Assembly (NCBI GenBank): GCA_052168235.1
Contig: JBQLZK010000036.1
Span: forward strand, 1-64,000
Reading direction: 5' to 3'
Length of the DNA: 64,000 nucleotides
Origin: Thainema sp.
GTDB taxonomy: Bacteria > Cyanobacteriota > Cyanobacteriia > Phormidesmidales > Phormidesmidaceae
Made by a program: the position numbers and the translations under genes. Below the pieces are notes generated by a model. The model did no database searches. It was not told where the DNA came from and worked only from the letters and a program-made list of their open reading frames with translations. This document shows positions 3,512 to 61,262 of this stretch, piece after piece. The first letter of the stretch is position 1, and every line of letters starts with the position of its first letter.

Positions 3512-6500
3512 TTATTCTTGCTGTTTGACTAAACTCGCCACTGCCTCAACTAATGTGTTGGGGTCTACGGGCTTTGGCACATGCTTCTGGAAACCGGCTG
3601 CAACCACCCGCTCATAGTCTATTTCTGAGGCATAGGCGGTGAGGGCAATAGCCGGAATCTGGCCGCCCTGCTCAGGCGCTAAGGTGCGGATCTGCCGCAT
3701 CAGCATGTAGCCATCAATATCGGGCATACCAATATCGCTGACCAATACTTGGGGTTGGGTCTGTTGTAAAACCGTCAGTGCCTCGTTGGCAGACGAAACG
3801 GAGACAACACGGGCTCCAGCTTGTCTGAGGATAAACCTGGTAATATCGCGGGTGTCCGGCTCATCATCCACGACCAGAATACGGACATCCTGTAAATCCA
3901 GTAATGGCTTCTGCGAGCGACTTGCATGTCTAGCTGTTTGTTGCGCTGTCAGGGTCGGCAGGGTGACGACAAAGGTTGCGCCCATGTCCTTGCCAAGACT
4001 ATTCGCCTGGATCGTCCCACCATGCAGTTCCACCAAATGGCGCACAATCGCCAATCCTAAACCAAGGCCACCGAACTGACGCGTCGTGGCGCTATCAGCC
4101 TGACGAAAGTAATCAAAAATATAGGGCAGGAAGTCGGGTGTAATGCCTGTGCCCGTATCGCTGACGATAAGTTGAGCGTAGGCGGGCGGATGGGTCGGTG
4201 GGTTCTCTGCCACTCTGCCACTCTGCCATTGTCCGACATTCCCACGCTCTTCTCGACTAACCTGTTCCAACTTCACATCTACCTGACCACCATTCGGCGT
4301 GAACTTGACGGCATTAGAAAGGAGATTCCAAACAATTTGCTGTAGGCGCGTCGCATCACCCGATACTAGCCCCACGTCCCGATTGAGATTCAGGTTAATT
4401 TGAATCGATTTGGCTTCTGCCGCCAGGCGGACAGTTTCAGTGGCGGCTTGAATGGTGGCGGCTAGGTTAACTGGGCGGACGGTAATATCCAGCTTGCCCC
4501 GCAGCATGCGGGAAATGTCGAGCAGATCGTCGATTAGCTCGGTTTGCAGTTTGGCGTTGCGCTCAATTACGGCCAGCGCCTTTTGAGTCTTGGCCTCATC
4601 CAAAACGCCGTTTTTGAGTAAGGTTGACCAGCCCAGAATCGGGTTGAGGGGCGATCGCAACTCGTGGGAAACCACGGCTAAAAATTCATCTTTGGTGCGA
4701 TTGGCCGCTTCAGCCGCTTCTCGTGCCGCTTGTTCGCGCTCTAACAGTTGGCTGCGCTGCTGTTCCAGTTGCTTTTGCTCTTCGATGTCAGTGGCCGTGC
4801 CGAACCATTTGATGACTCGGCCCTGTTTATTCTTGAGCGGAACGGCCTGATGGAGGTGCCAGCGATAGCCACCACCCATCTGGCGCATGCGGCCCTCAGC
4901 TTGATAATCGGTGCCCGCTTGCTGCGCCATTGTCCATTTCTGGTTGAGAGTCGGAATATCCTCCGGATGCACCACGGCTTGCCAGCCGCCAATTTGCGCC
5001 TGTTCAAGCGACAGGCCCGTGAACTCCGTCCAGCGCTGGTTGACATCCAAGAGCCTGCCGCCTGCGTCAGCTGTCCACACCAGTTGCGGAATCGATTCAG
5101 CTAGATAGCGATAGCGTTCTTCGCTTTGGCGCAGAGCGGCTTCCGCCTGCTTGATCGCGCTAATGTCATTGACCAAGGCGACAAATCCTTCAACGGTTCC
5201 CTGGCTATCAAAGCGCGGCACGTAGGTGGCGTTGACGTGGCGAACGACACCGTCCTTGTACAGAGCCTGTCGTTCAAACGTCACTTGCTCTCCGGCCAAA
5301 ACCTGTTCCACATAGGGCCGAATTTCAGCATAGGTCGCTTCACCTACCACTTCCCGAATATGCTTTCCGTAGATGTCCCCTACTGTTGGCTGAGCAAACC
5401 ATTCTTCGTATCCCTGGTTGGTGAAGCGGTAGCGCTGGTCGGCATCAATAAATGAGATTAGAGCGGGCACCGAGTTGGTCACTAGGCGCAGTTCAGTTTC
5501 GCGCTGCCGCAGGGTTTCTTCGGCCCGTTTGCGATCGCTAATATCCATCACCGAGCCGATGTAGCCCCTAAATTGGCCATCCACACCAAACCAGGGGCTA
5601 GCGGCATCAATCGCCCAGCGATATTCTCCATCCTTGCGCCGCAGCCGATACTCAAACTGGAAGGCTTCCTGCCGCTGATTGGCCGCCATAAAGATGGTGC
5701 GAGTGATGTCTTGATCCTCTGGATGAACCGCATCTAACCAGCCGAATCCCAGCCCGGTTTCCTCGGTTTGACCAGAAAAGTCATACCAGGTTTGGCTGAG
5801 GTAGGTGCAATAGCCAGTCGGGTCAGACACCCAGACCATAACGGGGGCATTGTCAGCCATACAGCGGAACCGCTCCTCGCTCTCCCGGAGAGCTGCGTTT
5901 GCTTGCTTCTGCTCGGTCATATCGCGGGAAACCACAACCAGTTTGACCACCTGCTCGGTAGCATCGCGCAGGGGCGTAACGACCACATCCCACCATTTCG
6001 GTTCGCCGCTCAGCGTGGGGCAGTAGCCCTGCATTCGACCAACGTGACCCGCTTTGGCATCTGCGATCGCAACAATCGCCTGCTCTCGTTCGTCGTCCTG
6101 CCAAAAATCAATCCAGTTACGGTCGAGAACTGCAGCGGGATCATTCGCTTTAATCGTTAGCAGCCCACCCCGGTTCATGTAGAGAATTTGGCCCTCCAGC
6201 GTCAGCACTTTGATGCAGTCGTTACTGCTGTCGAGAATCCGCTGCGTCAATTCTTCGCTCTCTCGTAAGGCCGCCTCTGTGGATCGACGATCGGTGATAT
6301 CCAGCGCGGTACCCCAAAGCTCGACCGCTTGCCGCTGGTTGCCCCCTCCCGTAAAGATAGTCTGTCCGTTAGCAGCGATCCAGCGCTCAGTACCGTCATC
6401 CCAGATAATCCGGTAGTCAATTTCATAGGTGCCGGATGAGGTTGGATCAAGAGCGGCGCTGATCCTACTCGCCACCCAGTCCCGATCCTCTGGGTGAATC

Positions 6501-49799: not shown

Positions 49800-50963
49800 T
49801 TAAATTCGCTGATCCAGCACTCTATCAATCAGGCGCGTGACCTCCGTTGCCATGCGGGCATCGGCACGGCGGGCTTCTTCATCGGGATCGCTAAGGGCTT
49901 GGGCCACCAGCAGCGTGAAGCTGAAGCTGTGCGCCGTACCGGAGACGGGCAAGCCAAATTGAACAAAGGTCGTGTAGCTGAGTTCAGTGCGATCGCGGAT
50001 TTGGCTGCGGCCAAAGCCCAGCTTAGACAGGATAACTGGACGGACAGGTTCAACGCCCAACTGTTTGAAGGCCAGATCCACATAGCGAGCCGGATCTCGG
50101 CCTAGCGGCGTGACCAGGCTGGAGAGACTATGCCACTGCGCTCCCGGTAGACGACTGGTGGCGGCCAAATGCCAGTGCCAGCCCAGCATCGTCATTAGCC
50201 GCGTCAGGTCGTAGGCAGAAATTGCGTTGTTACCGCGATGCTCCACATTCGGTGTTGTCAACACAACTCGATTGGTCACGGGATTGACCAGTTCCGGCTG
50301 CTGAAAAAACGGCGGTTCCCCATAGCGGCCCTGAAACATGAGCTGGTGATTACCCGTCAGCTCCCGCAGCCACTGCTGGAGACTCAGCGGCGTGTTGAAA
50401 CGCTTCAGGCCCGCAGAGATGGCGTTGGAACTGCCGATAGTGGCGGCATAGGTGACAACGTCATCGGCCAGTTGAGAAAACTGATAGCTGCTTGCGTTGC
50501 CGCGATCGCGAATCCAGAGTTGATCGATGGGCGTAGTCGGTAACAGGCGATTGGCGCGCGTAATCAGATTCAGCAGCGGCACAATTTTGGTCGTACTCCA
50601 AAACTCCACGTTGCTCAGCGCTTGCCGCCCAAACCACTGGGTGCGGATGGGTTCCGCTTCTGATACCGCCATCCCCAGGCATAAACAAGCCTGCTTGACA
50701 TCGGGATGGAGGAAATCTAAGCCCTCCGGCTCAATCACAGGCCGCACATTGATCTGCGGATAGGGTTGCGATCGCACATCTTGACGAGTCGGAATCTGCG
50801 ATCGCGACCGAAGCCGATTGCTGTAAGCATCAACGGCAGTGCGGTAGGGTGATTGTTCAATGCCTCGATCCAAAAAGGCCAGCTTTGCAGCATTAAATTC
50901 CGCTTCCTGGGCCAAAAAGTACTGATACAGTTCGTCATCGGAAAGGGGCTGGCGAAATGACAT
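49800..50963 (-). CDS. Conserved hypothetical protein (possible beta-lactamase-like fold)
   Basis: 387-aa ORF with SxxK (WSTTK), SSN and SKLG motifs. Confidence 0.7.
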   Translation of the reverse strand: MSFRQPLSDDELYQYFLAQEAEFNAAKLAFLDRGIEQSPYRTAVDAYSNRLRSRSQIPTRQDVRSQPYPQINVRPVIEPEGLDFLHPDVKQACLCLGMAVSEAEPIRTQWFGRQALSNVEFWSTTKIVPLLNLITRANRLLPTTPIDQLWIRDRGNASSYQFSQLADDVVTYAATIGSSNAISAGLKRFNTPLSLQQWLRELTGNHQLMFQGRYGEPPFFQQPELVNPVTNRVVLTTPNVEHRGNNAISAYDLTRLMTMLGWHWHLAATSRLPGAQWHSLSSLVTPLGRDPARYVDLAFKQLGVEPVRPVILSKLGFGRSQIRDRTELSYTTFVQFGLPVSGTAHSFSFTLLVAQALSDPDEEARRADARMATEVTRLIDRVLDQRI

Positions 50964-50982
50964 AGACGTACCGAATTTATCG

Positions 50983-53163
50983 CTAAAAATTGGGCTTCAG
51001 CGGCAATAATACCGTTACCTGCGTCCCGCCAAGCGCATCTGATGACTGAATCGTCAGCATGCCGTTGTGAGCCTCAATGATTCGTTTAGTAATGGCCAAG
51101 CCCAAGCCGTTGCCGGAGGATTTGGTAGTAAAAAATGGCTTGGTCAACTGGGCCAGCGTCTCGGCTGGAATGGGTTCGCCCGCGTTGAACACATCGACAT
51201 GAATCTGCTGCTTAGCGGTGTTGAGGCTGACGGTACAAGTGACGCAGGTTTGAGGCGAAACGGCTTCGCAGGCGTTGCTAATAATGTTAATAAACACCTG
51301 ATGCAGCTTATCGCGATCGCACTCCACCCAGGCGGGCTGATCGGACGGCGTGAGCTGAATGAGTCGTTCAACCGCAGCAGGCATTTCCCGCAGCGGCACC
51401 AGAATTTCTTCCAGAAACTGATTTAGTTCCAGTCGCTGATACTCCAACTGCTGCTGTTTGGCATAGAGCAAAATTTCGTTCAGCAACCGCTGGAGCCGCT
51501 CCGATTCCTCTAGCGCCAGTTCCAGACGCGCTTGAAATCGCGGCGACAAGTCCAACGACTTAAACGAGTTCAGCCCCATCCACACGGTGGTCAGCGGATT
51601 GCGAACTTCATGCACGATCATGGCCGCCAGTTCGCCAATTTCGGCCAGCCGCTCCAGTGCCTGCTCGGTCTGCTTGCGCTCGGTGATGTCCCTAGCCAGC
51701 GCTAAGATAAACGACTCGCCACAGGCGGCAAATCGACCTGCCCGCACTTCCACCGGAAAAACGGAACCATCGCGACGCCGATGGGTACCCGTCAGCGTAA
51801 TCGGAATACCTGGCTGAAGCTGCTGCCAGAGCTGCTCAAACTCGGCCATTGTGATCTCCTGCTGCACATCGGTGACGAGCATTTGCAGCAGTTCCTCGCG
51901 GGAGTACCCCAGATTTTGGCAGGCTTGCTGATTCACATCGGCAATTTTTCCCGCCTGCGTCACCACGAAAAAGGCATCGGCAGCCTGTTCAACCAGGGCA
52001 CGGAACCGCATTTCGCTACCGCGCAGCGCTTCCTCCATTTGCTTGCGCTCGGTGATGTCATTCACGACCGAGAGAATGCAGTCCTGCTGATTAATTGTGA
52101 TCCGCTCTGCCGAAAATAAAACAGTGTGGAGCTGATGGTTGCGATCGCAAAACTGATATTCCTGATTAAACACCATGCCCTCGGCCTGAACCTGCCGCAC
52201 CATCTCAATTCGATCTTGATGATTCACCCACAAATTAAGCGCCCAGGACATTTGACCAATCACGTCTTCGCGTTCTGCCCCATATAGGGCCAGAAAACTC
52301 TGATTCACTTCGATGATTTTCCCGGCTTCTAAGGTGCTGATGATGATCGGGTTGGGACTGGAGCGAAAGGCTTTAGAAAACTTCTCTTCCGATGCCCGCA
52401 GACTGGCTTCAGCCCGATCCCGTTCTGCGATCGCATCTGTCACCTGCTGATACATCTGCTCAAAGGCGGCAATCATGTCGCCCAGCTCATCCTGACGCCG
52501 AAACCGCAGTGAGCTGAACTCCGGCGTAGGGTGATTCTGTCTCGCCGCCTGCCCTGCCCGCAGCAAATCCTGGCGCAGCAGCAGAATCGGCGTAATCAGC
52601 ATCGGCTCTAGCACAATCAGCGTCGCCATCGTCACAAACAGCGAGATGATCAGCACCAGTCCCGCAATCCGGGCAATAAACAGATAGACTTCCCGCCGCA
52701 CACCGGAGGCATCGTGGCGAACGACCAGAATGTATCGTCCGTCCAGCGGCGACATTTCCCACACTGCATCGTAGCGGCGATCGGCCCGATTCAGATAATC
52801 TGTGCGGCCATTCTGCACAATATCCTGAATAGAAAGCTGGGGCGGTTCGCGAAAGCTGCCGACTAAATCGCCATCGGCTTCATACAGTGCGCCCCCTTTG
52901 ACGTTGGGCATCTGCTCAAGTTGCTGGAGTCGTTCTAGCAGTTCGACCCCGGATAGCGCCGGTTCACTTTGGCTAAGAATGCCGGAGGCTTCGGCAGTTG
53001 AAAGTTTTTCTAGGTAGTCCAGTAATTCCCGCTCTCGCCGATAAACGGAGGGGATGAGAATGATGGCTTCAATCACGACAATGCTGGCAAATACCCACAG
53101 CACAATCCGCCGCGATAGACGCGCTTGGAATAAGTGGAGTAAGGCTTGGGCACGGGTTCTCAC
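50983..53163 (-). CDS. PAS-domain sensor histidine kinase (TM-HAMP-2xPAS-HisKA-HATPase)
   Basis: RQDELG HAMP, two PAS, VHEVRNPL, GNGLGL. Confidence 0.92.
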   Translation of the reverse strand: MRTRAQALLHLFQARLSRRIVLWVFASIVVIEAIILIPSVYRRERELLDYLEKLSTAEASGILSQSEPALSGVELLERLQQLEQMPNVKGGALYEADGDLVGSFREPPQLSIQDIVQNGRTDYLNRADRRYDAVWEMSPLDGRYILVVRHDASGVRREVYLFIARIAGLVLIISLFVTMATLIVLEPMLITPILLLRQDLLRAGQAARQNHPTPEFSSLRFRRQDELGDMIAAFEQMYQQVTDAIAERDRAEASLRASEEKFSKAFRSSPNPIIISTLEAGKIIEVNQSFLALYGAEREDVIGQMSWALNLWVNHQDRIEMVRQVQAEGMVFNQEYQFCDRNHQLHTVLFSAERITINQQDCILSVVNDITERKQMEEALRGSEMRFRALVEQAADAFFVVTQAGKIADVNQQACQNLGYSREELLQMLVTDVQQEITMAEFEQLWQQLQPGIPITLTGTHRRRDGSVFPVEVRAGRFAACGESFILALARDITERKQTEQALERLAEIGELAAMIVHEVRNPLTTVWMGLNSFKSLDLSPRFQARLELALEESERLQRLLNEILLYAKQQQLEYQRLELNQFLEEILVPLREMPAAVERLIQLTPSDQPAWVECDRDKLHQVFINIISNACEAVSPQTCVTCTVSLNTAKQQIHVDVFNAGEPIPAETLAQLTKPFFTTKSSGNGLGLAITKRIIEAHNGMLTIQSSDALGGTQVTVLLPLKPNF

Positions 53164-53274
53164 AGCCAGCCACAGATGATTACTGCATCACTTATTATGT
53201 CTCAATCCGTCTCTTTGCTCTCGTCAAAGTTATACAGCGATGTGGATGCAAGTGCGATCGCACTTGCTCATGAG

Positions 53275-53471
53275 ACTGCGATCTCACTTGCGGTGCTATA
53301 ACTGGCATGGTTCGCAATGGGAATGTATCTGTGCATTGAATTGCGATCGCATTTCACCATTGAGTCATCAGGAGCGATCGCACTTGGCTGGTGAAACTGC
53401 GATCTCACTTGCGGTGCTATAACTGGCATGGTTCGCAATGGGAATGTATCTGTGCATTGAATTGCGATCGC
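53275..53471. repeat. 76-bp identical direct repeat bounded by HIP1 sites
   Basis: 53275-53350 = 53396-53471; HIP1 at 53254, 53343, 53374, 53464. Confidence 0.9.
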
Positions 53472-53482
53472 GCTGCTGCACC

Positions 53483-53552
53483 GCAGAACGCTTGGCTTTG
53501 CGGCGTACCGGAGCGCAGCGTAGGTGCGTCCGCCAACAGCCAAGCGTTCTGT
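53483..53552 (-). mobile_element. attC-like recombination site of the GFA cassette
   Basis: ACAGAAC-5 nt-GCTGTTG GCGGACGCACC...GGTACGCCG CAAAGC-5 nt-GTTCTGC; imperfect palindrome with bulged bases, 9 nt after the stop codon. Confidence 0.7.
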
Positions 53553-53561
53553 GATGGTAGC

Positions 53562-53966
53562 TCACTCTGGCAGACCCTCGAACTTTGGCACTTCCCCTAA
53601 CTCTCCATCCCAGGCAGCTTTGCTAGATGTGAAAATGTGCGCTGTTGGTAACATAGAGATCTTAGTGTCCAAACACCCTGCGGGAACGACGAGCAAACCT
53701 GCGATCTGAGTGCTTGGCAATGCTGAACCACACAACTTACAAAAACTTTTATTGTGACGAGTGCCCGGAAGCGTAAAGGAAGTCACAGCATCGGGACCCG
53801 ACTGCCAGATCAATTTAGCTGACTGTGAAAATAGATTTGCCGCATGAGCAGAACCTGTGTCCTTTTGGCAATGCTGGCAATGACACAGGTAAAAGCTATC
53901 GAAGTCGCCTTTTACCTCAAACCTCACAGTGCCACACAGGCAAGAACCGAAATAATCAGTCATCAA
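53562..53966 (-). CDS. GFA/CENP-V family Zn-binding protein (gene cassette 2)
   Basis: GSCLCG, CHCQHCQK, FCKLCGS, PTAHIF. Confidence 0.92.
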   Translation of the reverse strand: MMTDYFGSCLCGTVRFEVKGDFDSFYLCHCQHCQKDTGSAHAANLFSQSAKLIWQSGPDAVTSFTLPGTRHNKSFCKLCGSALPSTQIAGLLVVPAGCLDTKISMLPTAHIFTSSKAAWDGELGEVPKFEGLPE

Positions 53967-53996
53967 AACCCCTTCTACAGCCTGTGGGCAAATTAC

Positions 53997-54085
53997 ACAT
54001 AACGCTCCGCTTCACCCGCCGCAGACACCCTTTCGGACTCAACTAGCGGTCTCTACACGGTCGGTGTGCAAGCGGATTATTAGGC
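53997..54085 (-). mobile_element. attC-like recombination site of the HEPN-like cassette
   Basis: GCCTAAT-5 nt-GCTTGCAC ACCGACCG...CGGCGG GTGAAGC-5 nt-GTTATGT; 7 nt after the stop codon. Confidence 0.75.
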
Positions 54086-54092
54086 ATCGCTA

Positions 54093-54986
54093 CTATAGCG
54101 TACATCTCCGAAGCTCTATGAATTCTTCATCAGTTAAAGAACCTGTTTTTCCAAGTCTTTCGTTAATTCTTCTTGCTGTGGGATCGATATCATGAACCGC
54201 ATGCGCATAGTAACAGTGTGGTCGTATGAACTCAATAACAAACGGCTGGTTTTCTACTGCTGATCGCACCCATACTTCTCCTGGCACATCAAATACCAAA
54301 TAAATATCTTTACGATTTTCCACTCCAAAAATCTCTGTAACTGCTGCAATAAGCTTATTAATTGCAACAGGAGCTATGGATTCAAAATCGTAGTCTTCAT
54401 TGTAGTGAATGCTTTCGTGCCGAATTGGCATTAATTCGCGGAATAAATTTACAGCATTTTCGGGAACTAATTGCCAGTCAGCAATCAGGTCTAGCATTTT
54501 TCCCCAGTCATCAAAACTAGATTTCCGGTAAATCTTCTTATACTCAGGATGTGACTTGAAATAGCCTCGTGTCTTTAGCACAAGTCGATTTAGGATTCTT
54601 TCTGCTAAACAACAGGTTGATGTTACTGCTGGGTAAAAGTATCCCAGACAGTAAGTGTTAATAATTTGTTGAATTTTGTATGCATATTCATCAATAAGAG
54701 CAATTGGAGGATAGTCAATTTTCTTCCATCGCTCAAATTTCTCCATGAAATCAGTCGATCCAAGTTCAACTTTTAGTTGCTTCTCAATTTCTACAGTCAA
54801 TTCTTCTAACTCTGAAGAGCTAAAAATCCTGCGTCGTGTATCAACGTGAAATTGAACAAGCCGGTATCGACGATCAAGAGAAGGACAAAGAAAGTTTATT
54901 GCTTCCTCGCCCCGGTTTTGTTTCTCAGAAACAGAAATCGTATGGTTTTGTCCACACACTAGACAAGCTATATCAACATTAATCAT
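54093..54986 (-). CDS. Hypothetical protein with HEPN-like (Rx4H) domain (gene cassette 1)
   Basis: AT-rich 297 aa; YxxGxFYPAV...LAERIL helix and RHESIH motif; N-terminal CxxC. Confidence 0.65.
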   Translation of the reverse strand: MINVDIACLVCGQNHTISVSEKQNRGEEAINFLCPSLDRRYRLVQFHVDTRRRIFSSSELEELTVEIEKQLKVELGSTDFMEKFERWKKIDYPPIALIDEYAYKIQQIINTYCLGYFYPAVTSTCCLAERILNRLVLKTRGYFKSHPEYKKIYRKSSFDDWGKMLDLIADWQLVPENAVNLFRELMPIRHESIHYNEDYDFESIAPVAINKLIAAVTEIFGVENRKDIYLVFDVPGEVWVRSAVENQPFVIEFIRPHCYYAHAVHDIDPTARRINERLGKTGSLTDEEFIELRRCTL

Positions 54987-55023
54987 CCAAAAATCTTCTT
55001 ACATTAAATTCAACGATTTGTAT

Positions 55024-55100
55024 GCCTAACAATTATTAGACTGAATCTTTCTGTATAAGATCCCTCATTGGGCGATTAAGCTGAAAAATTCAGTATAACC
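55024..55100 (-). mobile_element. attI-like site heading the cassette array
   Basis: GTTAGGC core preceded by inverted TCTAAT and two TTATAC-N7-TTCAG-NNTAAT direct repeats. Confidence 0.5.
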
Positions 55101-55307
55101 ACCCCACAATTCCAAACTCACGCTGTTTAGAGTTTATTTATCATCCCTCAATATATATTCACTCCATGCTGTCGTCTCAGTACGATCGCAAATTTTGCAG
55201 AGTGCATTGATGGAATGTAACGCCTTTTCTGTTTAAATCTGAGGTGAGGCTGATATTTGGAAAAAGTGCGATCGCACTGACCTAGTATTTCTGTCAGTGA
55301 ACCTAGA

Positions 55308-55571
55308 TTGACTCCGCAGACCAAATCTCGTACTGTGAAACGTTAAGTTGCCATGCAAACATCACCTGCACTCGGCAACTGGATACCAAAAATCTAGTCA
55401 ACGCGACCCAGAATTGCTGACACCAACTCTGAGCCGCTAACCCCAACGTTGGTCTAGCAACGCAGGGCTCAGGAGATTATAACCCTCCTGTAGCCCCCCT
55501 GCTTTGCGCTTCAAATCGCGGGGGGGCTAGATTTTTGGCTTTCCTCCGAAAGTCAAAAACAGGAGAACACA
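55308..55571 (+). promoter_or_regulatory. Sigma70-like promoter and structured about 230-nt leader
   Basis: TTGACT-17-TACTGT, several hairpins, 12-bp long-range helix, AGGAGA RBS. Confidence 0.55.
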
Positions 55572-55853
55572 ATGACATATTTCATCCTCGGTGCTGCCAC
55601 CAACGCAGCGCCACAGCCTGCTGCGACCCATACCAGCGTTCCACAGCGCGACAGTCGCCATCCCCTGCGGATTATCCTGCTCGGCACTCGCCCCGACATC
55701 ATCATCACTGTCAAAAACCTGCATCGACGCGGCTTTGCCGAAGCCAACGAATGGAGCCAGCCGATTCCCTGCCCCAGTGCAGGCGACGTGGCGCGGCTCC
55801 TGCCCCGTCACCCCGATGATCAGCTCAGCATCCTGACTCGCTATCTGAGCTGA
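55572..55853 (+). CDS. Small hypothetical protein (LRIILLG...LHRRGFAE..EWS...SILTRY type)
   Basis: 93 aa, strong RBS; motif recalled from a small cyanobacterial family of unknown function. Confidence 0.7.
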   Translation: MTYFILGAATNAAPQPAATHTSVPQRDSRHPLRIILLGTRPDIIITVKNLHRRGFAEANEWSQPIPCPSAGDVARLLPRHPDDQLSILTRYLS

Positions 55854-55869
55854 TTGCCCTCACCTCTTC

Positions 55870-56751
55870 TCATGATGCCTGCCGAAACATCCCATGTCCG
55901 CGCAGCAAGTCCAGGAACATGAAGACAGCGGGCGAGAGCAGTGTATCAGACAGTGTGACAGCACCGATGACGCGTTCGAGTGGTACAGGTAGCGATCGCA
56001 CTTGCACCCCGTCGGGAATCGGTAATGCAGCCAAGCGAGGCAAGATGGCAGCTCCCAGTCCCTGAGCGACCATGCTGACAATGGTGGAATCTTCCTTAAT
56101 CGTGTAGGCCACGGTCAGCGGTTGATTCCACCTAGCCCAGTGTTCGCGCACGGCAGAGGTGCATTCGGCATAGTTGAGCAAGATAAACGAGTGCATCGCC
56201 AAAGCCTGCCAGGTCAGCACGTCGGGGACGGGGCCAGCGGCTTCTGACAGCAGCGCCACATATTCATCGCGTACGATTTCCCAGCTATCAAATTCGTCCG
56301 ATCGCGGCAGGGGAACGAGGCCAATATCGACCTGGCCTTCCCGCAGCGCTTGCTCAATCCCTGCCGGATCGTTTTCCACGATTTCCACTTCTACGGTGGG
56401 AAACCGATGACAAAACTGAGCAATTTTCTGCGGCAGGATATGGGTGGCAACGCTGCGAATCGAGGCAATCCGCACCCGCCCACCGTGCAGACCCTTCTCA
56501 CGATTCACCTCATGCTCCATGCTGTCCCGCAGTTGCACAATCTGCTCCGCATGGGCAATCACCCGCTCACCAATCGGTGTAGGACGTGCGCCGAATCGTC
56601 CCCGTGACAGCAGCGCCACACCTAACTCGTCTTCCAAAGCTGCGATCGCACGACTGACGGCTGACTGGGACAGATCCAGCGTCTGAGCCGCCAGGGAAAA
56701 GCTGCCGCAATTGACAACCGCCAAAAGAATCCGCAGGTGAAAAATGTTCAT
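55870..56751 (-). CDS. LysR-family transcriptional regulator
   Basis: GSFSLAAQTLDLSQSAVSRAIAALEDELG plus substrate-binding domain. Confidence 0.95.
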   Translation of the reverse strand: MNIFHLRILLAVVNCGSFSLAAQTLDLSQSAVSRAIAALEDELGVALLSRGRFGARPTPIGERVIAHAEQIVQLRDSMEHEVNREKGLHGGRVRIASIRSVATHILPQKIAQFCHRFPTVEVEIVENDPAGIEQALREGQVDIGLVPLPRSDEFDSWEIVRDEYVALLSEAAGPVPDVLTWQALAMHSFILLNYAECTSAVREHWARWNQPLTVAYTIKEDSTIVSMVAQGLGAAILPRLAALPIPDGVQVRSLPVPLERVIGAVTLSDTLLSPAVFMFLDLLRGHGMFRQAS

Positions 56752-56887
56752 CTAGGCTATCTATTCGCTTTCTGCATAGATGTGAACCGCCAAGAGTTTT
56801 GATCTTCGAGAAACCGCCAGGTTAGCGTGTAGCTACCCGTGAAATTCTTGACTTTTATTTACATTTAACAAGGCGGCCAATCCAATC

Positions 56888-57382
56888 ATGTACGAGTTAA
56901 TACCCTTTGAAAAATTCCGCGATACGCCCAACGTTCGCTTTTTTGATATCACGATTTCCAGCTCCAACGCCCGCGATCTAGTTTTTCACGACGGCCCAGC
57001 CACCAGCCCCAACAACTCGGAAATAGGCCATTGGCAGTTTTACCTGCATCCCAATCAGGAAGACAATCTGCTTGCCCTCAGCGGTGGTCGCACCTTCTGC
57101 CTAGTCAATTTGGCCTGGGAGCAGCCCGTGCATATTGTGCGACTGGATGCCAATCAGGATATTTTAAGAATTCCACCAGGAACGTTCCATCGCTCCGTGT
57201 CTGATCCCAATGGCTCCCTGGTGCTGAATCAGGCCGTCCGCACCCAACGCGCCACCGTCGCCAGCGAGTTCCGCGTCTACAACAGTGGCGACATTCCTCG
57301 CCTACAAGATGTACTCAACGCTTATCAACCCTGGAATCACGTTTATTTTCATCAGTGCGATCGCACTTACCGAGCCGCATAA
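56888..57382 (+). CDS. Cupin-fold (RmlC-like) protein, divergent from lysR
   Basis: FYLHPNQEDNL and LRIPPGTFHRS cupin motifs. Confidence 0.8.
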   Translation: MYELIPFEKFRDTPNVRFFDITISSSNARDLVFHDGPATSPNNSEIGHWQFYLHPNQEDNLLALSGGRTFCLVNLAWEQPVHIVRLDANQDILRIPPGTFHRSVSDPNGSLVLNQAVRTQRATVASEFRVYNSGDIPRLQDVLNAYQPWNHVYFHQCDRTYRAA

Positions 57383-57398
57383 ACTTACGCATTGCCGC

Positions 57399-57456
57399 TC
57401 AAAATCTAAAATCCAAAACCCAAAATCCAAAATCGGTATCTCCAAATCCAAAATCT
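57399..57456. repeat. Heptamer tandem repeat (AAAATCY); also at 61572-61651
   Basis: AAAATCT AAAATCC units read directly. Confidence 0.8.
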
Positions 57457-57576
57457 CGGCACAATTGTGCCAACAAACGGTGGACTCAAAAATAGCTGTA
57501 AAGTTTCTGCCCTGATAGCGGGAGTTTTTCGCTAGGATCTAAACCGCTCCACTGTGCCGCATGTAGGTATTCAACG

Positions 57577-58809
57577 TTGGCTGTTCCGAACCTTTGGTTA
57601 TTGGTAGGTCCCCCTGTGATTGGTGGTGTAATTGGCTATTTCACCAATGACATCGCCCTCAAGATGCTGTTTCGACCCTATCGCCCGATTTACATTGCGG
57701 GTAGACGATTACCCTTCACCCCTGGCTTAATTCCCAGCAACCAAGAACGCTTAGCGCAGCGGGTTGCCGACACGATTATGGGTTCGCTGCTCACGCCAGA
57801 GGAGCTACAGCGACTGGCGCGGCGGCTGCTGCAAACCGAGCGGATGCAGGCCGCCATTTACTGGCTGCTGCAACTGGTGCGCGAGCAGATCCAAACCAGT
57901 TCCAAAGATCGCACGGTGCAGGTGATTGCCAATATTCTGCGCGATTTCTTTGGCGAATCTCTGCCGCGTCTGCTGAAGGTGCTGGCCCGTCGCAGCGATT
58001 TTCTTGAAGATCAGCTCAATCAGCTGTTCGATCAGGTTTTGCTGGAATTTCAGCTCAGCGATCGTCAAGCCGATCAGCTCTCCATCTGGATTTTGCAGGT
58101 GGTGCTGCCACCGGACACGATTCGGCAGGCTATTGTTGATTTCCTGACCGATCGCAATATTCAAACCATTGACGAAGGGTTCCGTGAACGCACCAGCGGC
58201 ACCTACTGGGTTGTTGCCAATCTATTCGGCCTGCGAAATGCCCTGACCCGTCTACGCACGTTCTGTTTAGACGACCGGGAAGAGAGCAACGCCCGGATTG
58301 CTGAATTAATTCAATCCCTGGGCGTCAAAGATCGGCTGAAGGAATGGCTGCAAAACTTCACCCTGCAATCGCTGCCGGTTTCTACCGTGCGCCAGCTCCG
58401 GAAAACGGTGAGAGAAACGGTCAGGGCCTATATCCGCGATCGCGGATCGGATGTGCTGCAAAGCCTTGGTGAATCAATTGATTGGGAAAATATGGCTGCC
58501 CTAGTGGTCAACAGTCTCCAGCAGTCTGAAGTGGTGAACAGCTCCCTCGATCCGGTTAGTCAAGAACTAGCGCTGGTACTGGAGCGATATCTAGAACGAG
58601 ATCTGGAAAATATCGTCGCCAAAGCCATTCCCATTTTGAATATCGACCAGGTGATCATTGACCGAGTGAAATCAACCTCACCTAAAGATTTAGAAGTGGC
58701 TGTTCAGACAATCGTGAAAAACGAACTACAGGCCATTGTGAACCTGGGGGGTGTACTCGGTTTTATCATCGGTGGATTTCAAGCAGTTTGGCTGATCCTT
58801 CAGTCCTAG
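57577..58809 (+). CDS. DUF445-family membrane protein
   Basis: [39 protein letters not shown]. Confidence 0.9.
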
Positions 58810-58823
58810 GTGATCTCCAACTA

Positions 58824-58849
58824 AAAAGGGGCGCGATGCGCCCCTTTTT
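58824..58849. terminator. Bidirectional intrinsic terminator
   Basis: AAAAAGGGGCGC-GAT-GCGCCCCTTTTT. Confidence 0.75.
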
Positions 58850-58879
58850 GATCGGTTGTATCAAGTCTTTGCATAAGAG

Positions 58880-58938
58880 CCCAATTTATTGTTTGTGAAC
58901 CGTTTGCGAAGCAAACGGTTCACAAACAATAAATTGGG
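58880..58938. repeat. Long palindrome family P copy
   Basis: Perfect 28-bp stem with GAA loop. Confidence 0.85.
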
Positions 58939-58958
58939 TTTTCAACTAGGCTTGGATA

Positions 58959-61262
58959 TTATTCGGAGTCTTCCGCTGCTGCTAACGCCGCTTGTGTTTT
59001 CTCTCGATCGAGCTTGAAGACCACCACACCCAGCGGAGGTAGACAAACATCTAACGAGTGATAGTGTCCGTGTGCGCTCCAATCATCAGCCCACTTGCCG
59101 CCGTAGTTGCCCATACCGCTGCCGCCGTACTCTTTGGCATCGCTGTTAAACAGCTCTTTGTAATAGCCCGGTAGCGGTACGCCCACTTTGTAATGGCTGT
59201 GGGGCTGCGGCGTAAAATTGCAGACTGTGACCGTGAAGTCTTCTTCGTAGCCGTTGACCTTGCGCATGAAGGAAATCACGCTGTGGCTGTTGTCATTACA
59301 ATCAACCCACTCAAAACCATCGTAGGAGAAGTCATCCATGTAGAGGGATGGCTCACTGCGATAGAAGTGGTTGAGGTCGGTCATGAACTTCTTGAGCTTT
59401 CGGTGCGGCTCATACTGGAGCATATCCCACTCCAAATCACCCCACACATTCCACTCGCTCCACTGGCCATACTCCATGCTCATGAACAGCGTTTTCTTGC
59501 CAGGGTGGGTAAACATAAAAGTGTAGAGCGCTCGCATATTGGCAAACTTCTGCCAGCGATCGCCCGGCATCTTGCCCAGCATGTTGCTCTTGCCGTGTAC
59601 CACCTCATCATGGGAGAGCGCCAGCATAAAGTTTTCGCTGAAGGCGTACATGATGCTGAACGTCAGGTTGTTCTGATGGAACTGGCGGAACCAGGGATCC
59701 ATCGCGAAGTAGTCCAGCATATCGTGCATCCAGCCCATGTTCCACTTCAGGTTGAAACCCAGACCACCCACATAGGTTGGCCAAGACACCATCGGCCAGG
59801 ATGTTGATTCCTCTGCGATCGACAACGAGCCAGGATAGTAGCTGAAAATAACGTGGTTGACCTGTCGGAGGAAATCTGCCGCTTCAATATTCTCGCGACC
59901 GCCATACTCATTGGGAAGCCACTCGTCCCGCAGGTAGTCAAGATAGAGCATGGATGCCACTGCGTCGACTCGAATACCGTCGATGTGATACTTGTCGAAC
60001 CAGAACAGAGCGTTAGCAACTAAAAAGTTACGCACTTCATTGCGGGCGTAGTTAAAGACCAGCGTACCCCATTCTTTATGCTCACCTTTGCGCGGATCGC
60101 CGTGTTCATAAAGGTGCGTTCCATCAAATAGCGCTAGACCATGCCCATCTTTCGGGAAGTGACCCGGTACCCAGTCCACCAGCACACCAATACCGTTTAG
60201 GTGACACTGATCAATGAAGTACATCAGGTCTTCCGGCGAACCATAGCGGGAGGTGGCGGCGTAGTAGCCTGTCACTTGATAGCCCCAGGAGCCATCAAAC
60301 GGGTGTTCGGCAATGGGCAAGACTTCAATATGAGTGAAGCCCAGTTCTTTCACATAAGGAATTAACCGATCGGCAAGTTCCCGATAAGTTAAGAATCGCG
60401 CACCCGGCTTCAAATCTGCCGCTGCGACGGGCGGAATAATGTTGCCGTGGGCATCACGACCGGGATTATCCCAGTCGCCGTGCATCCAGGAGCCAAGGTG
60501 AACTTCATAGACCGATATCGGCTGCTTGAGCGCATCGCGATCGCGCCGTTGCTCTAGCCACTCTTGGTCATGCCATTCAAAAGAATCTAAGTCCGCCACA
60601 ATGGAGGCCGTCTTGGGCCGAACCTCCTGCTGGAAGCCATAGGGATCGGATTTTTCGTAGATGTGTCCGGCGTAGTTTTTGATTTCGTACTTGTAGTGAG
60701 TGCCATAATCCAGGTCAGGAATGAAGAGTTCCCACACGCCGTTGCCGAGCTTGCGCATCTGATGTTTACGACCATCCCAGTAATTGAAGTCACCCAAAAC
60801 CGATACATTGCGAGCATTGGGTGCCCAAACCGCAAAGTAAACACCTTTGACATCATCAATGGTTAGAACGTGAGCACCGAGCTTCTCGTAGATCCTATGG
60901 TGATTACCTTCGGCAAATAAATGAAAATCCATTTCCTGGAACTGGCAGTCCCGGAATGCATAGGGGTCGTGGATGGTGCGTTCGTGTTCTCCCTCTTTGA
61001 CGCGAAGCTGATAGTTTTTCAGATCGAAGTCTTCGATAACGCATTCAAAGAAGTGGGGATGATGAACAGACTGCATCGGGAATTCTTGCCGCTCTTCTGG
61101 GCAAACAACCGTTACGGCGCTGGCTTCGGGCTGATAGGCTCGCACAACCCAAACCGAATGGCCATTTTCCTGAATACGATGCGGACCCAGTACCTCAAAC
61201 GGATCATGATGATGGTTCCAAACAATGCGATCGATTTGGTCTGGAGCAACGGACATCACCAT
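58959..61262 (-). CDS. glgB: 1,4-alpha-glucan branching enzyme
   Basis: [46 protein letters not shown]; start 61262 or 61256. Confidence 0.97.

Follow-up and report, generated by a model that had tools for sequence, protein, structure and literature searches.

The DNA analysed here (the window) comprises positions 1–64,000 of contig JBQLZK010000036.1 of the cyanobacterium Thainema sp. (GCA_052168235.1), and its minus strand very likely carries, between 55180 and 53483, a decayed chromosomal integron with two gene cassettes (we put the probability at about 0.9). The assembly of this genome, hereafter G000, has 7.54 Mb in 205 contigs and 50% G+C, and is rated 99.99% complete; the window belongs to contig C36. 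Read along the minus strand, the locus consists of a remnant of the integron-integrase gene (intI), the spacer between intI and the attachment site attI, which we call the platform, the attI core, and two cassettes, each formed by an open reading frame (ORF) and a recombination site (attC). A first-pass annotation of this DNA had described an integrase-less array with an attI-like site and two attC cassettes, and every element that it listed (GTTAGGC, both ORFs and both palindromes) was found at its minus-strand position. The attI-like site and the two attC cassettes are supported by covariance-model matches, by further sites in the genome and by boundaries in relatives at G|TT, where the vertical bar, here and in other site names, marks the crossover point. 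The word "integrase-less" holds in that there is no adjacent intI gene, but not in full, since five intI codons and a conserved spacer persist at 55180–55068.

Both attC sites were recovered with a covariance model, R1, trained on six attC sites of contigs C41, C80 and C1 of the same genome with the window left out, and they are its top two matches in the window, as the first-pass annotation had expected of an attC model. The first, attC1 (53997–54085, minus strand, 89 nucleotides (nt); R'' GCCTAAT at 54085–54079, R' GTTATGT at 54003–53997), scores 39.5 bits with an E-value of 2.9e-8 over the whole window. The second, attC2 (53483–53552, minus strand, 70 nt; R'' ACAGAAC, R' GTTCTGC), scores 18.5 bits with the filters off, corresponding to an E-value of 8e-4 when 2.5 kb are searched and of 0.021 over the whole window, and is homologous to the conserved attC of metagenome cassettes that carry the same GFA-family gene (R'' CACATAAC, spacer CAGTG). 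Similar sites had also been predicted elsewhere in the genome, and at least 17 are present at E ≤ 1e-3, at least 10 of them outside the training set; the count is a lower bound, as 150 of the 719 first-look candidates were scored. Folded as single-stranded DNA of the minus strand, site 1 reaches a z-score of −2.6 (1 of 200 dinucleotide shuffles folds as well) and site 2 a z-score of −3.6 (0 of 200).

The detailed architecture of the two hairpins follows the arrangement R''(RYYYAAC)-spacer-L''...L'-spacer-R'(GTTRRRY) that defines an attC site. Each cassette's cores pair in the way first noted for them, TTAGGC with GCCTAA in 6 of 6 positions followed by T for C, and TTATGT with ACAGAA with one mismatch, and the 5-nt spacers and bulges are also as first read (site 1: G, A, A; site 2: G, G, A). 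Each site has its three bulges on the AAC arm, the first and last of them 3+3 bp apart. This spacing agrees with the rule given in the relevant portion of PMC5027507, where attC sites have extrahelical bases on the top-strand AAC arm and 6 bp separating the first one from the last. Site attC1 has all the features except for AAT in place of AAC, a change that proved real and derived, the contigs of sequencing runs X3, X5 and X9 reading C at 54079; it may, as first proposed, have locked cassette 1 in place. Site attC2 keeps the conserved triplets, and its three bulges are spaced at 3+3 bp, yet its spacer GCTTG is fully paired with CAAGC, so that the unpaired central spacer is gone, where relatives have CAGTG. 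Its R'' is ACAGAAC against ACATAAC in relatives and its flank TTCTGC against TTATGC in the same-genus genome G001, changes by which pairing has been restored.

The first bulge is a top-strand G in nearly all attC sites of this genome, which departs from the bottom-strand base described as "usually a G" in the same portion of PMC5027507. The suggestion that this G bulge marks a distinct class of recombination site was rejected as unproven in view of locus L024, where one cassette is flanked by one canonical-bulge and one G-bulge site, and a cyanobacteria-specific attC covariance model is already reported in the sections consulted of Ghaly et al. 2021 (PMC8352920). The G bulge thus looks like variation within attC.

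It could be argued that the resemblance of the palindromes to attC is due to chance and that they are ordinary terminators or dispersed repeats, with no integron involved. Such a reading could point to the near-perfect hairpin and weak model score of attC2, and to the poor specificity of the bare motif, a crude scan for AAC...GTT hairpins with folding having yielded 22,872 pairs genome-wide, of which 3633 passed loose filters. It does not account for the match of an independent model to both sites, for a platform homologous to intI-adjacent sequence, or for cassette homologues elsewhere that are bounded at G|TT; moreover, neither palindrome has a second copy in the genome, and neither is followed by a T-run. 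We therefore consider it extremely improbable. The crude scan was set aside as unspecific, and a stricter L-box heuristic was dropped since it missed most true sites. Rfam offered no route either, having no attC family, and its matches in 50000–60000 were chance-level microRNA and small RNA hits.

Upstream of the cassettes lies an integron platform that has lost its intI. The block 55175–55068 has 87–88% identity to four other loci of the genome, on contigs C41, C71, C80 and C1, and at C41 and C71 it adjoins, divergently, N-terminal fragments of intI, one of which matches TIGR02249 positions 1–62 (E 1.2e-18). In the relative G019 (locus L013), a homologous platform (83% identity over 165 nt) adjoins an intact intI of 325 amino acids (aa); it likewise has the GGTTATACTGAA box, as well as three ~40-nt hairpin modules in tandem and an attI core, TCTAAACAATTG|TTAGCC. 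In the window, the intI remnant is ATG CTG TCG TCT CAG on the plus strand (55166–55180), aligned with the 5' codons of intI as preserved in the C41 and C71 fragments and with the C80 junction, and is followed on the minus strand by the intI–attI spacer (55068–55165). The attI core GTCTAATAATTG|TTAGGC (55024–55041, minus strand, crossover at 55030/55029), whose right half is GTTAGGC (55030–55024), aligns with TCTAAT-N4-5-G|TTAG beside intact intI in relatives. Other relatives with an intact intI have the same layout with differing hairpin sequences. Compared with a complete integron, the window thus retains the attI beside the start of intI with insertion at G|TT, and five codons in place of an adjacent IntI-type (TIGR02249) gene. 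The genome has at least five such platforms, none with a functional intI.

The ancestral intI, on the plus strand and divergent from the array, would have been deleted down to these five codons, with the spacer and attI core kept, and two promoterless cassettes would stand at attI in canonical orientation, each closed by a folded attC. Integron cassettes are expressed from a promoter that lies in the platform, and in the window the spacer holds the conserved GGTTATACTGAA box, with TATACT at 55097–55092 as a candidate cassette promoter. A terminator scan gave two terminator-like matches, both inside an ORF.

Between the platform and attI lies a degenerate hairpin, CTTAATCGCCC...GGGATCTTATAC (55053–55080, minus strand), recognised by comparison with the other platforms as a single copy of a ~40-nt unit. 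The window and its orthologue in G001 retain just this one degenerate module, whereas the other platforms have two to three intact ones of the form GCCTAATCACCC-loop-GGGTGTTAGGC. The 27-nt hairpins are confined to platform loci, as judged from a scan of the genome for the pattern CCTAAY...GTTAGG (81 matches, mostly irrelevant). Repeated in tandem every 40 nt, the modules are located between the TATACT box and attI at C41:2367–2480, at C80, at C1:271808–271916, at C71:30793–30901 and at 2550–2670 of L013, and can also be written GCCTAA(T)CACCC-loop-GGGTGTTAGGC; their arms vary among lineages while the hairpin potential is maintained. They may be accessory IntI-binding sites. In class 1 integrons, attI1 combines a simple site with two accessory repeats bound by IntI1, DR1 and DR2. 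The sites described here resemble it in having two inverted binding sites around G|TT and repeated elements upstream, between the promoter region and the core, and differ in that these elements are one to three tandem ~40-nt modules, each an inverted repeat (GCCTAATCACCC...GGGTGTTAGGC). In a full-text literature search, we found no description of an attI with tandem hairpin modules.

The point at which intI ends varies among the platforms. Those of C36 and C80 are cut at the same place, after intI codon 5 (CTGAGACG...; C80:24451 and 55180 in the window), with unrelated sequence beyond, and the C1 platform is truncated ~8 nt away, while C41 and C71 keep about 70 and 37 intI codons. In the window, a dispersed repeat of ~580 nt (55262–55864) lies between the platform and a LysR gene, and contains a 93-aa ORF (55572–55853, plus strand) with no Pfam match. 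It has 15 further matches in the genome (E ≤ 1e-10, 78–91% identity), 11 of them covering more than 540 nt, and many copies in G001, where the LysR gene is on another contig. The repeat may have been part of the rearrangement that removed intI.

Both cassettes behave as discrete mobile units, the gene and its attC recurring together in different arrays with boundaries at G|TT. Cassette 1 (54003–55029, minus strand, 1027 nt) consists of a 297-aa ORF (54986–54093) and attC1, and was delimited with the homologous cassette of L024 and with contigs of X3, X5 and X9; its G+C content is 39.6%, against 55–57% in the flanking genes. Of 872 candidates, 115 are homologues of its protein at E ≤ 0.001, and their named sources are patchy across phyla. 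One genome locus was recovered, L024, from a metagenome-assembled genome of the Actinomycetota, which encodes a homologue of 61% aa identity between two R1 matches of 29.8 and 28.8 bits, with a homologous leader that starts at G|TTAGGAATAC (G|TTAGGA) and its own R'', TCCTAAC. Contigs of X3 and X5 carry cassette 1 (54000–55064, ~95% identical) in a different context.

Cassette 2 (53489–54002, minus strand, 514 nt) consists of a GFA-family ORF (53966–53562, 134 aa) and attC2, and was defined by PF04828 and by its metagenome relatives. We retrieved 80 metagenome loci (L025–L104) that encode relatives with 80–92% aa identity, in 17 of which R1 finds 23 matches, all 23 on the gene strand. In 28 of the 80 loci, the start motif GTTATGTG (with at most one mismatch) and the L-arm motif (with at most two) are kept at a distance of 461–481 nt, which is 463 nt in the window. 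The boundaries were tested with 20 sequences, window included, that have in addition a recognisable R' motif, reduced to 17 by removal of redundant flanks. The mean pairwise identity (n = 17) rises from 0.31 in the 60 nt before the starting G|TT to 0.61 directly within the cassette, stands at 0.78 in the 3' arm of attC and falls to 0.25 past the ending G|TT. The relatives' boundaries therefore coincide with G|TT, as they do in the homologues of cassette 1, in the syntenic locus of G001 and in the X9 contig, the last two described below; a failure to coincide had been named at the outset as grounds for giving up the cassette interpretation.

The GFA cassette is very widely disseminated. Metagenomes of marine, freshwater, mat and other origin contain the gene with its attC, and many different cassettes stand upstream of it. 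A tblastn search of the 80 GFA loci with the 297-aa protein gave 0 matches, and no conserved two-cassette block was found: the attC1-like arms in L083 follow a CPBP-like ORF, not a homologue of the 297-aa protein. The platforms on C41, C80 and C1 are likewise followed by ORF cassettes, which end in yCTAAC-5 nt-GTTG(G)AGCsG(A)C...GTTAGnn, and the cargo at these other platforms is typical of chromosomal integrons. The arrays at C1:271972–275000 and C80:20900–24000 include, judging by eye from the translations, two toxins with partners, one PIN-like with a small partner upstream and one MazF/PemK-like whose partner is RHH-like.

We compared the array with the syntenic locus of the same-genus genome G001 (C15, L021) and with contigs of four sequencing runs; no sequencing run contained half or more of the words of the stretch, and no RNA run was listed. 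G001 shares the histidine-kinase flank (91%), the truncated junction gcgatcgta|CTGAGACG and the attI, cagtctaataattG|TT, and then carries one GNAT cassette instead, with an attC of 67.9 bits; the two loci become homologous again at the last attC, at G|TT(A/C)TGCggtgcagcag. A 718-nt contig of X9 joins 53999 to 55027, skipping 1027 nt, which is the length of cassette 1, with a 4-nt ambiguity that includes G|TT, and extends across the truncated junction as far as 55300. The same pattern is seen at a second platform, that of C41, which has a truncated intI in common with its G001 orthologue (92.7% identity) and diverges from it at the G|TT of attI. Because the shared truncated junction carries different cassettes, we infer that the gain and loss of cassettes continued once intI was truncated, most simply through IntI acting in trans.

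IntI recombines the folded bottom strand of the attC of a circular cassette with double-stranded attI at G|TT. Cassettes are thus inserted at attI, and the newest one is in first position. By this logic, the GFA cassette would have been in place first, and the cassette of the 297-aa ORF would have been inserted at attI afterwards. Both insertions would postdate the truncation of intI, and the recombinase would therefore have come from another integron in the cell.

Two further features of these regions were observed in the comparison with G001. Directly upstream of its platform, at 6024–6900 of L021 and in array orientation, there is a cassette-like unit with a 248-aa ORF and a short attC (19.2 bits, E 5e-4), so that the platform is bracketed by attC sites, and the sequences that follow both of these sites are diverged direct repeats (TTATGCGGyGCAG...). 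In the window, directly after the R' of attC2 (53254–53480), there are two copies, ~120 nt apart, of a 76–98-nt unit bounded by GCGATCGC-like (HIP1) sequence. The unit has no other copy in G000 and is absent at this place in G001, where a single copy follows the R' of another attC, upstream of the platform; the sequence GCGATCGC itself is present 8963 times in the G000 assembly, as would be expected of a cyanobacterium.

Several observations weigh against the account given so far. R1 is specific to sites of this genome; attC2 is a weak match, missed under default filters and with the window-wide E-value of 0.021 given above; and attC1 has AAT where AAC is conserved. A consensus scan found no sigma-70-type promoter in the platform or on the array strand. 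The evidence from X9 amounts to one 718-nt contig at a depth of 3.6, which matches the window at ~90% in the platform and 97% in GFA. Also, the assembly is divided into 205 contigs and three of the platforms are located at contig ends or close to them, which leaves room for an intact intI in unassembled sequence. Finally, the involvement of IntI in trans is read from shared junctions, and there is an alternative in which the cassette differences would have arisen by homologous recombination, with entire arrays exchanged by allelic replacement among strains or among paralogous platforms.

The substrates for such replacement exist, as the platform copies, 87–93% identical, could provide one homology arm and the conserved chromosomal flank a second one. 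The differences, however, start and stop exactly at G|TT, as site-specific recombination predicts, and the new cassette is in first position at attI; in addition, the exchanged arrays would themselves have had to be assembled on a platform that had this truncated junction. Given the site-specificity of the breakpoints, we rate allelic replacement lower than insertion by IntI in trans, and consider it unlikely.

A different question is whether recombination continues in this genome. Searches of the G000 assembly with TIGR02249, with PF00589 and, by tblastn, with the IntI of G019 found no intact intI, only the N-terminal fragments at C41 and C71, and the PF00589 matches elsewhere in the genome are not IntI-like. 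G001 has an intI fragment only. Given that there is no intact intI, that attC1 has AAT and that the unpaired spacer of attC2 is gone, the array is probably stranded in this genome now. The opposite possibility is that it is active today, served in trans by an intact IntI encoded in unassembled sequence or on incoming DNA. In its favour, cassette content at the truncated platform differs among G000, G001 and the X9 contig, and likewise at the C41 platform, from which one would argue that service in trans has therefore happened; the contigs of the assembly break at the C71 and C80 platforms; and intI is found above the TIGR02249 cut-off in 23 of the 41 genomes searched (G000 included), several of which have more than one copy. 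Against it are the lack of an intact intI in a 99.99%-complete genome, the mere fragment in G001, the derived AAT of attC1 and the loss of the unpaired central spacer of attC2 relative to its relatives, and we regard present activity as quite unlikely. A broader version, which we advance tentatively and with more doubt than conviction, is that in this cyanobacterial lineage platforms with a truncated intI, at least five in this genome, are live "orphan docking sites" with ongoing gain and loss of cassettes through IntI in trans. The tandem hairpin modules, conserved in the lineage, would then serve for accessory IntI binding or for regulation, and such an attI is not known from proteobacterial integrons.

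Regarding the cargo, the product of cassette 2 is a GFA-family Zn-binding protein, its ORF matching PF04828 with 91.7 bits (cut-off 24.3, E 4.3e-26). The 297-aa protein of cassette 1 has no match in Pfam (also at E ≤ 10), NCBIfam or PADLOC. Its N-terminus has conserved Cys pairs, and R189 and H194 do not vary among 22 aligned homologues. HEPN domains have a four-helix fold with an R-x4-6-H motif. The structure of the protein was modelled with a pLDDT of 87.5, and of the 12 structures that match it best, 11 are HEPN domains or Csm6 proteins, over residues 98–222, although the best one, 2hsb, has a Z-score of 9.2 (root mean square deviation 3.2, 115 aligned residues), and values below ~13 are not decisive for helical bundles. 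Foldseek gave no PDB match at E ≤ 0.001 (best E-value 0.24), and an Atlas search gave a lead only, to DUF4145-like clusters. On balance, we lean towards a Zn-ribbon combined with a HEPN-like domain; the protein may be an RNase toxin or a defence protein.

Integrons in cyanobacteria are recorded in genome surveys, as stated in the sections consulted of Cury et al. 2016 (PMC4889954) and Nemergut et al. 2008 (PMC2426708). In the part of PMC4889954 that treats them, clusters of attC sites lacking an integron-integrase (CALINs) are described, with the loss of intI from a complete integron as one proposed origin, and the relevant passage of Cambray et al. 2011 (PMC3108266) reports intI inactivation as common, at 43–46% of the intI genes examined. 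The window would be classed as a CALIN, or pseudo-integron, in that at least two attC sites, identified with R1 and 445 nt apart, lie within 4 kb on one strand with no functional intI nearby. It differs from a CALIN in the preserved attI and in an intI remnant whose 15 nt are too few for the profile-based search for pseudogenes described in that part of PMC4889954, and which is recognisable here because the platform is repeated in the genome and stands beside an intact intI in a relative. With the sedentary chromosomal integrons of cyanobacteria it shares site architecture, orientation and the kind of cargo (unknowns, toxin–antitoxin pairs and small enzymes), the difference being that intI has been lost from this copy and is functional at none of the platforms of the genome.

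In itself, the locus adds another decayed integron to a phylum whose integrons, CALINs and inactivated integrases have already been catalogued. It flags a widely spread and uncharacterised cassette gene of Zn-ribbon/HEPN-like type, and it offers natural substrates for tests of cyanobacterial IntI, namely an attC with AAC changed to AAT, an attC without the unpaired spacer, and attI sites with one versus three modules. Its value is that of a clear and sharply delimited case, in that the same truncated platform is found in three states, with two cassettes in this genome, with one in a metagenome contig and with a different one in the same genus, and that a second platform repeats the pattern, which suggests that cassette arrays can keep turning over after their own integrase has been lost.

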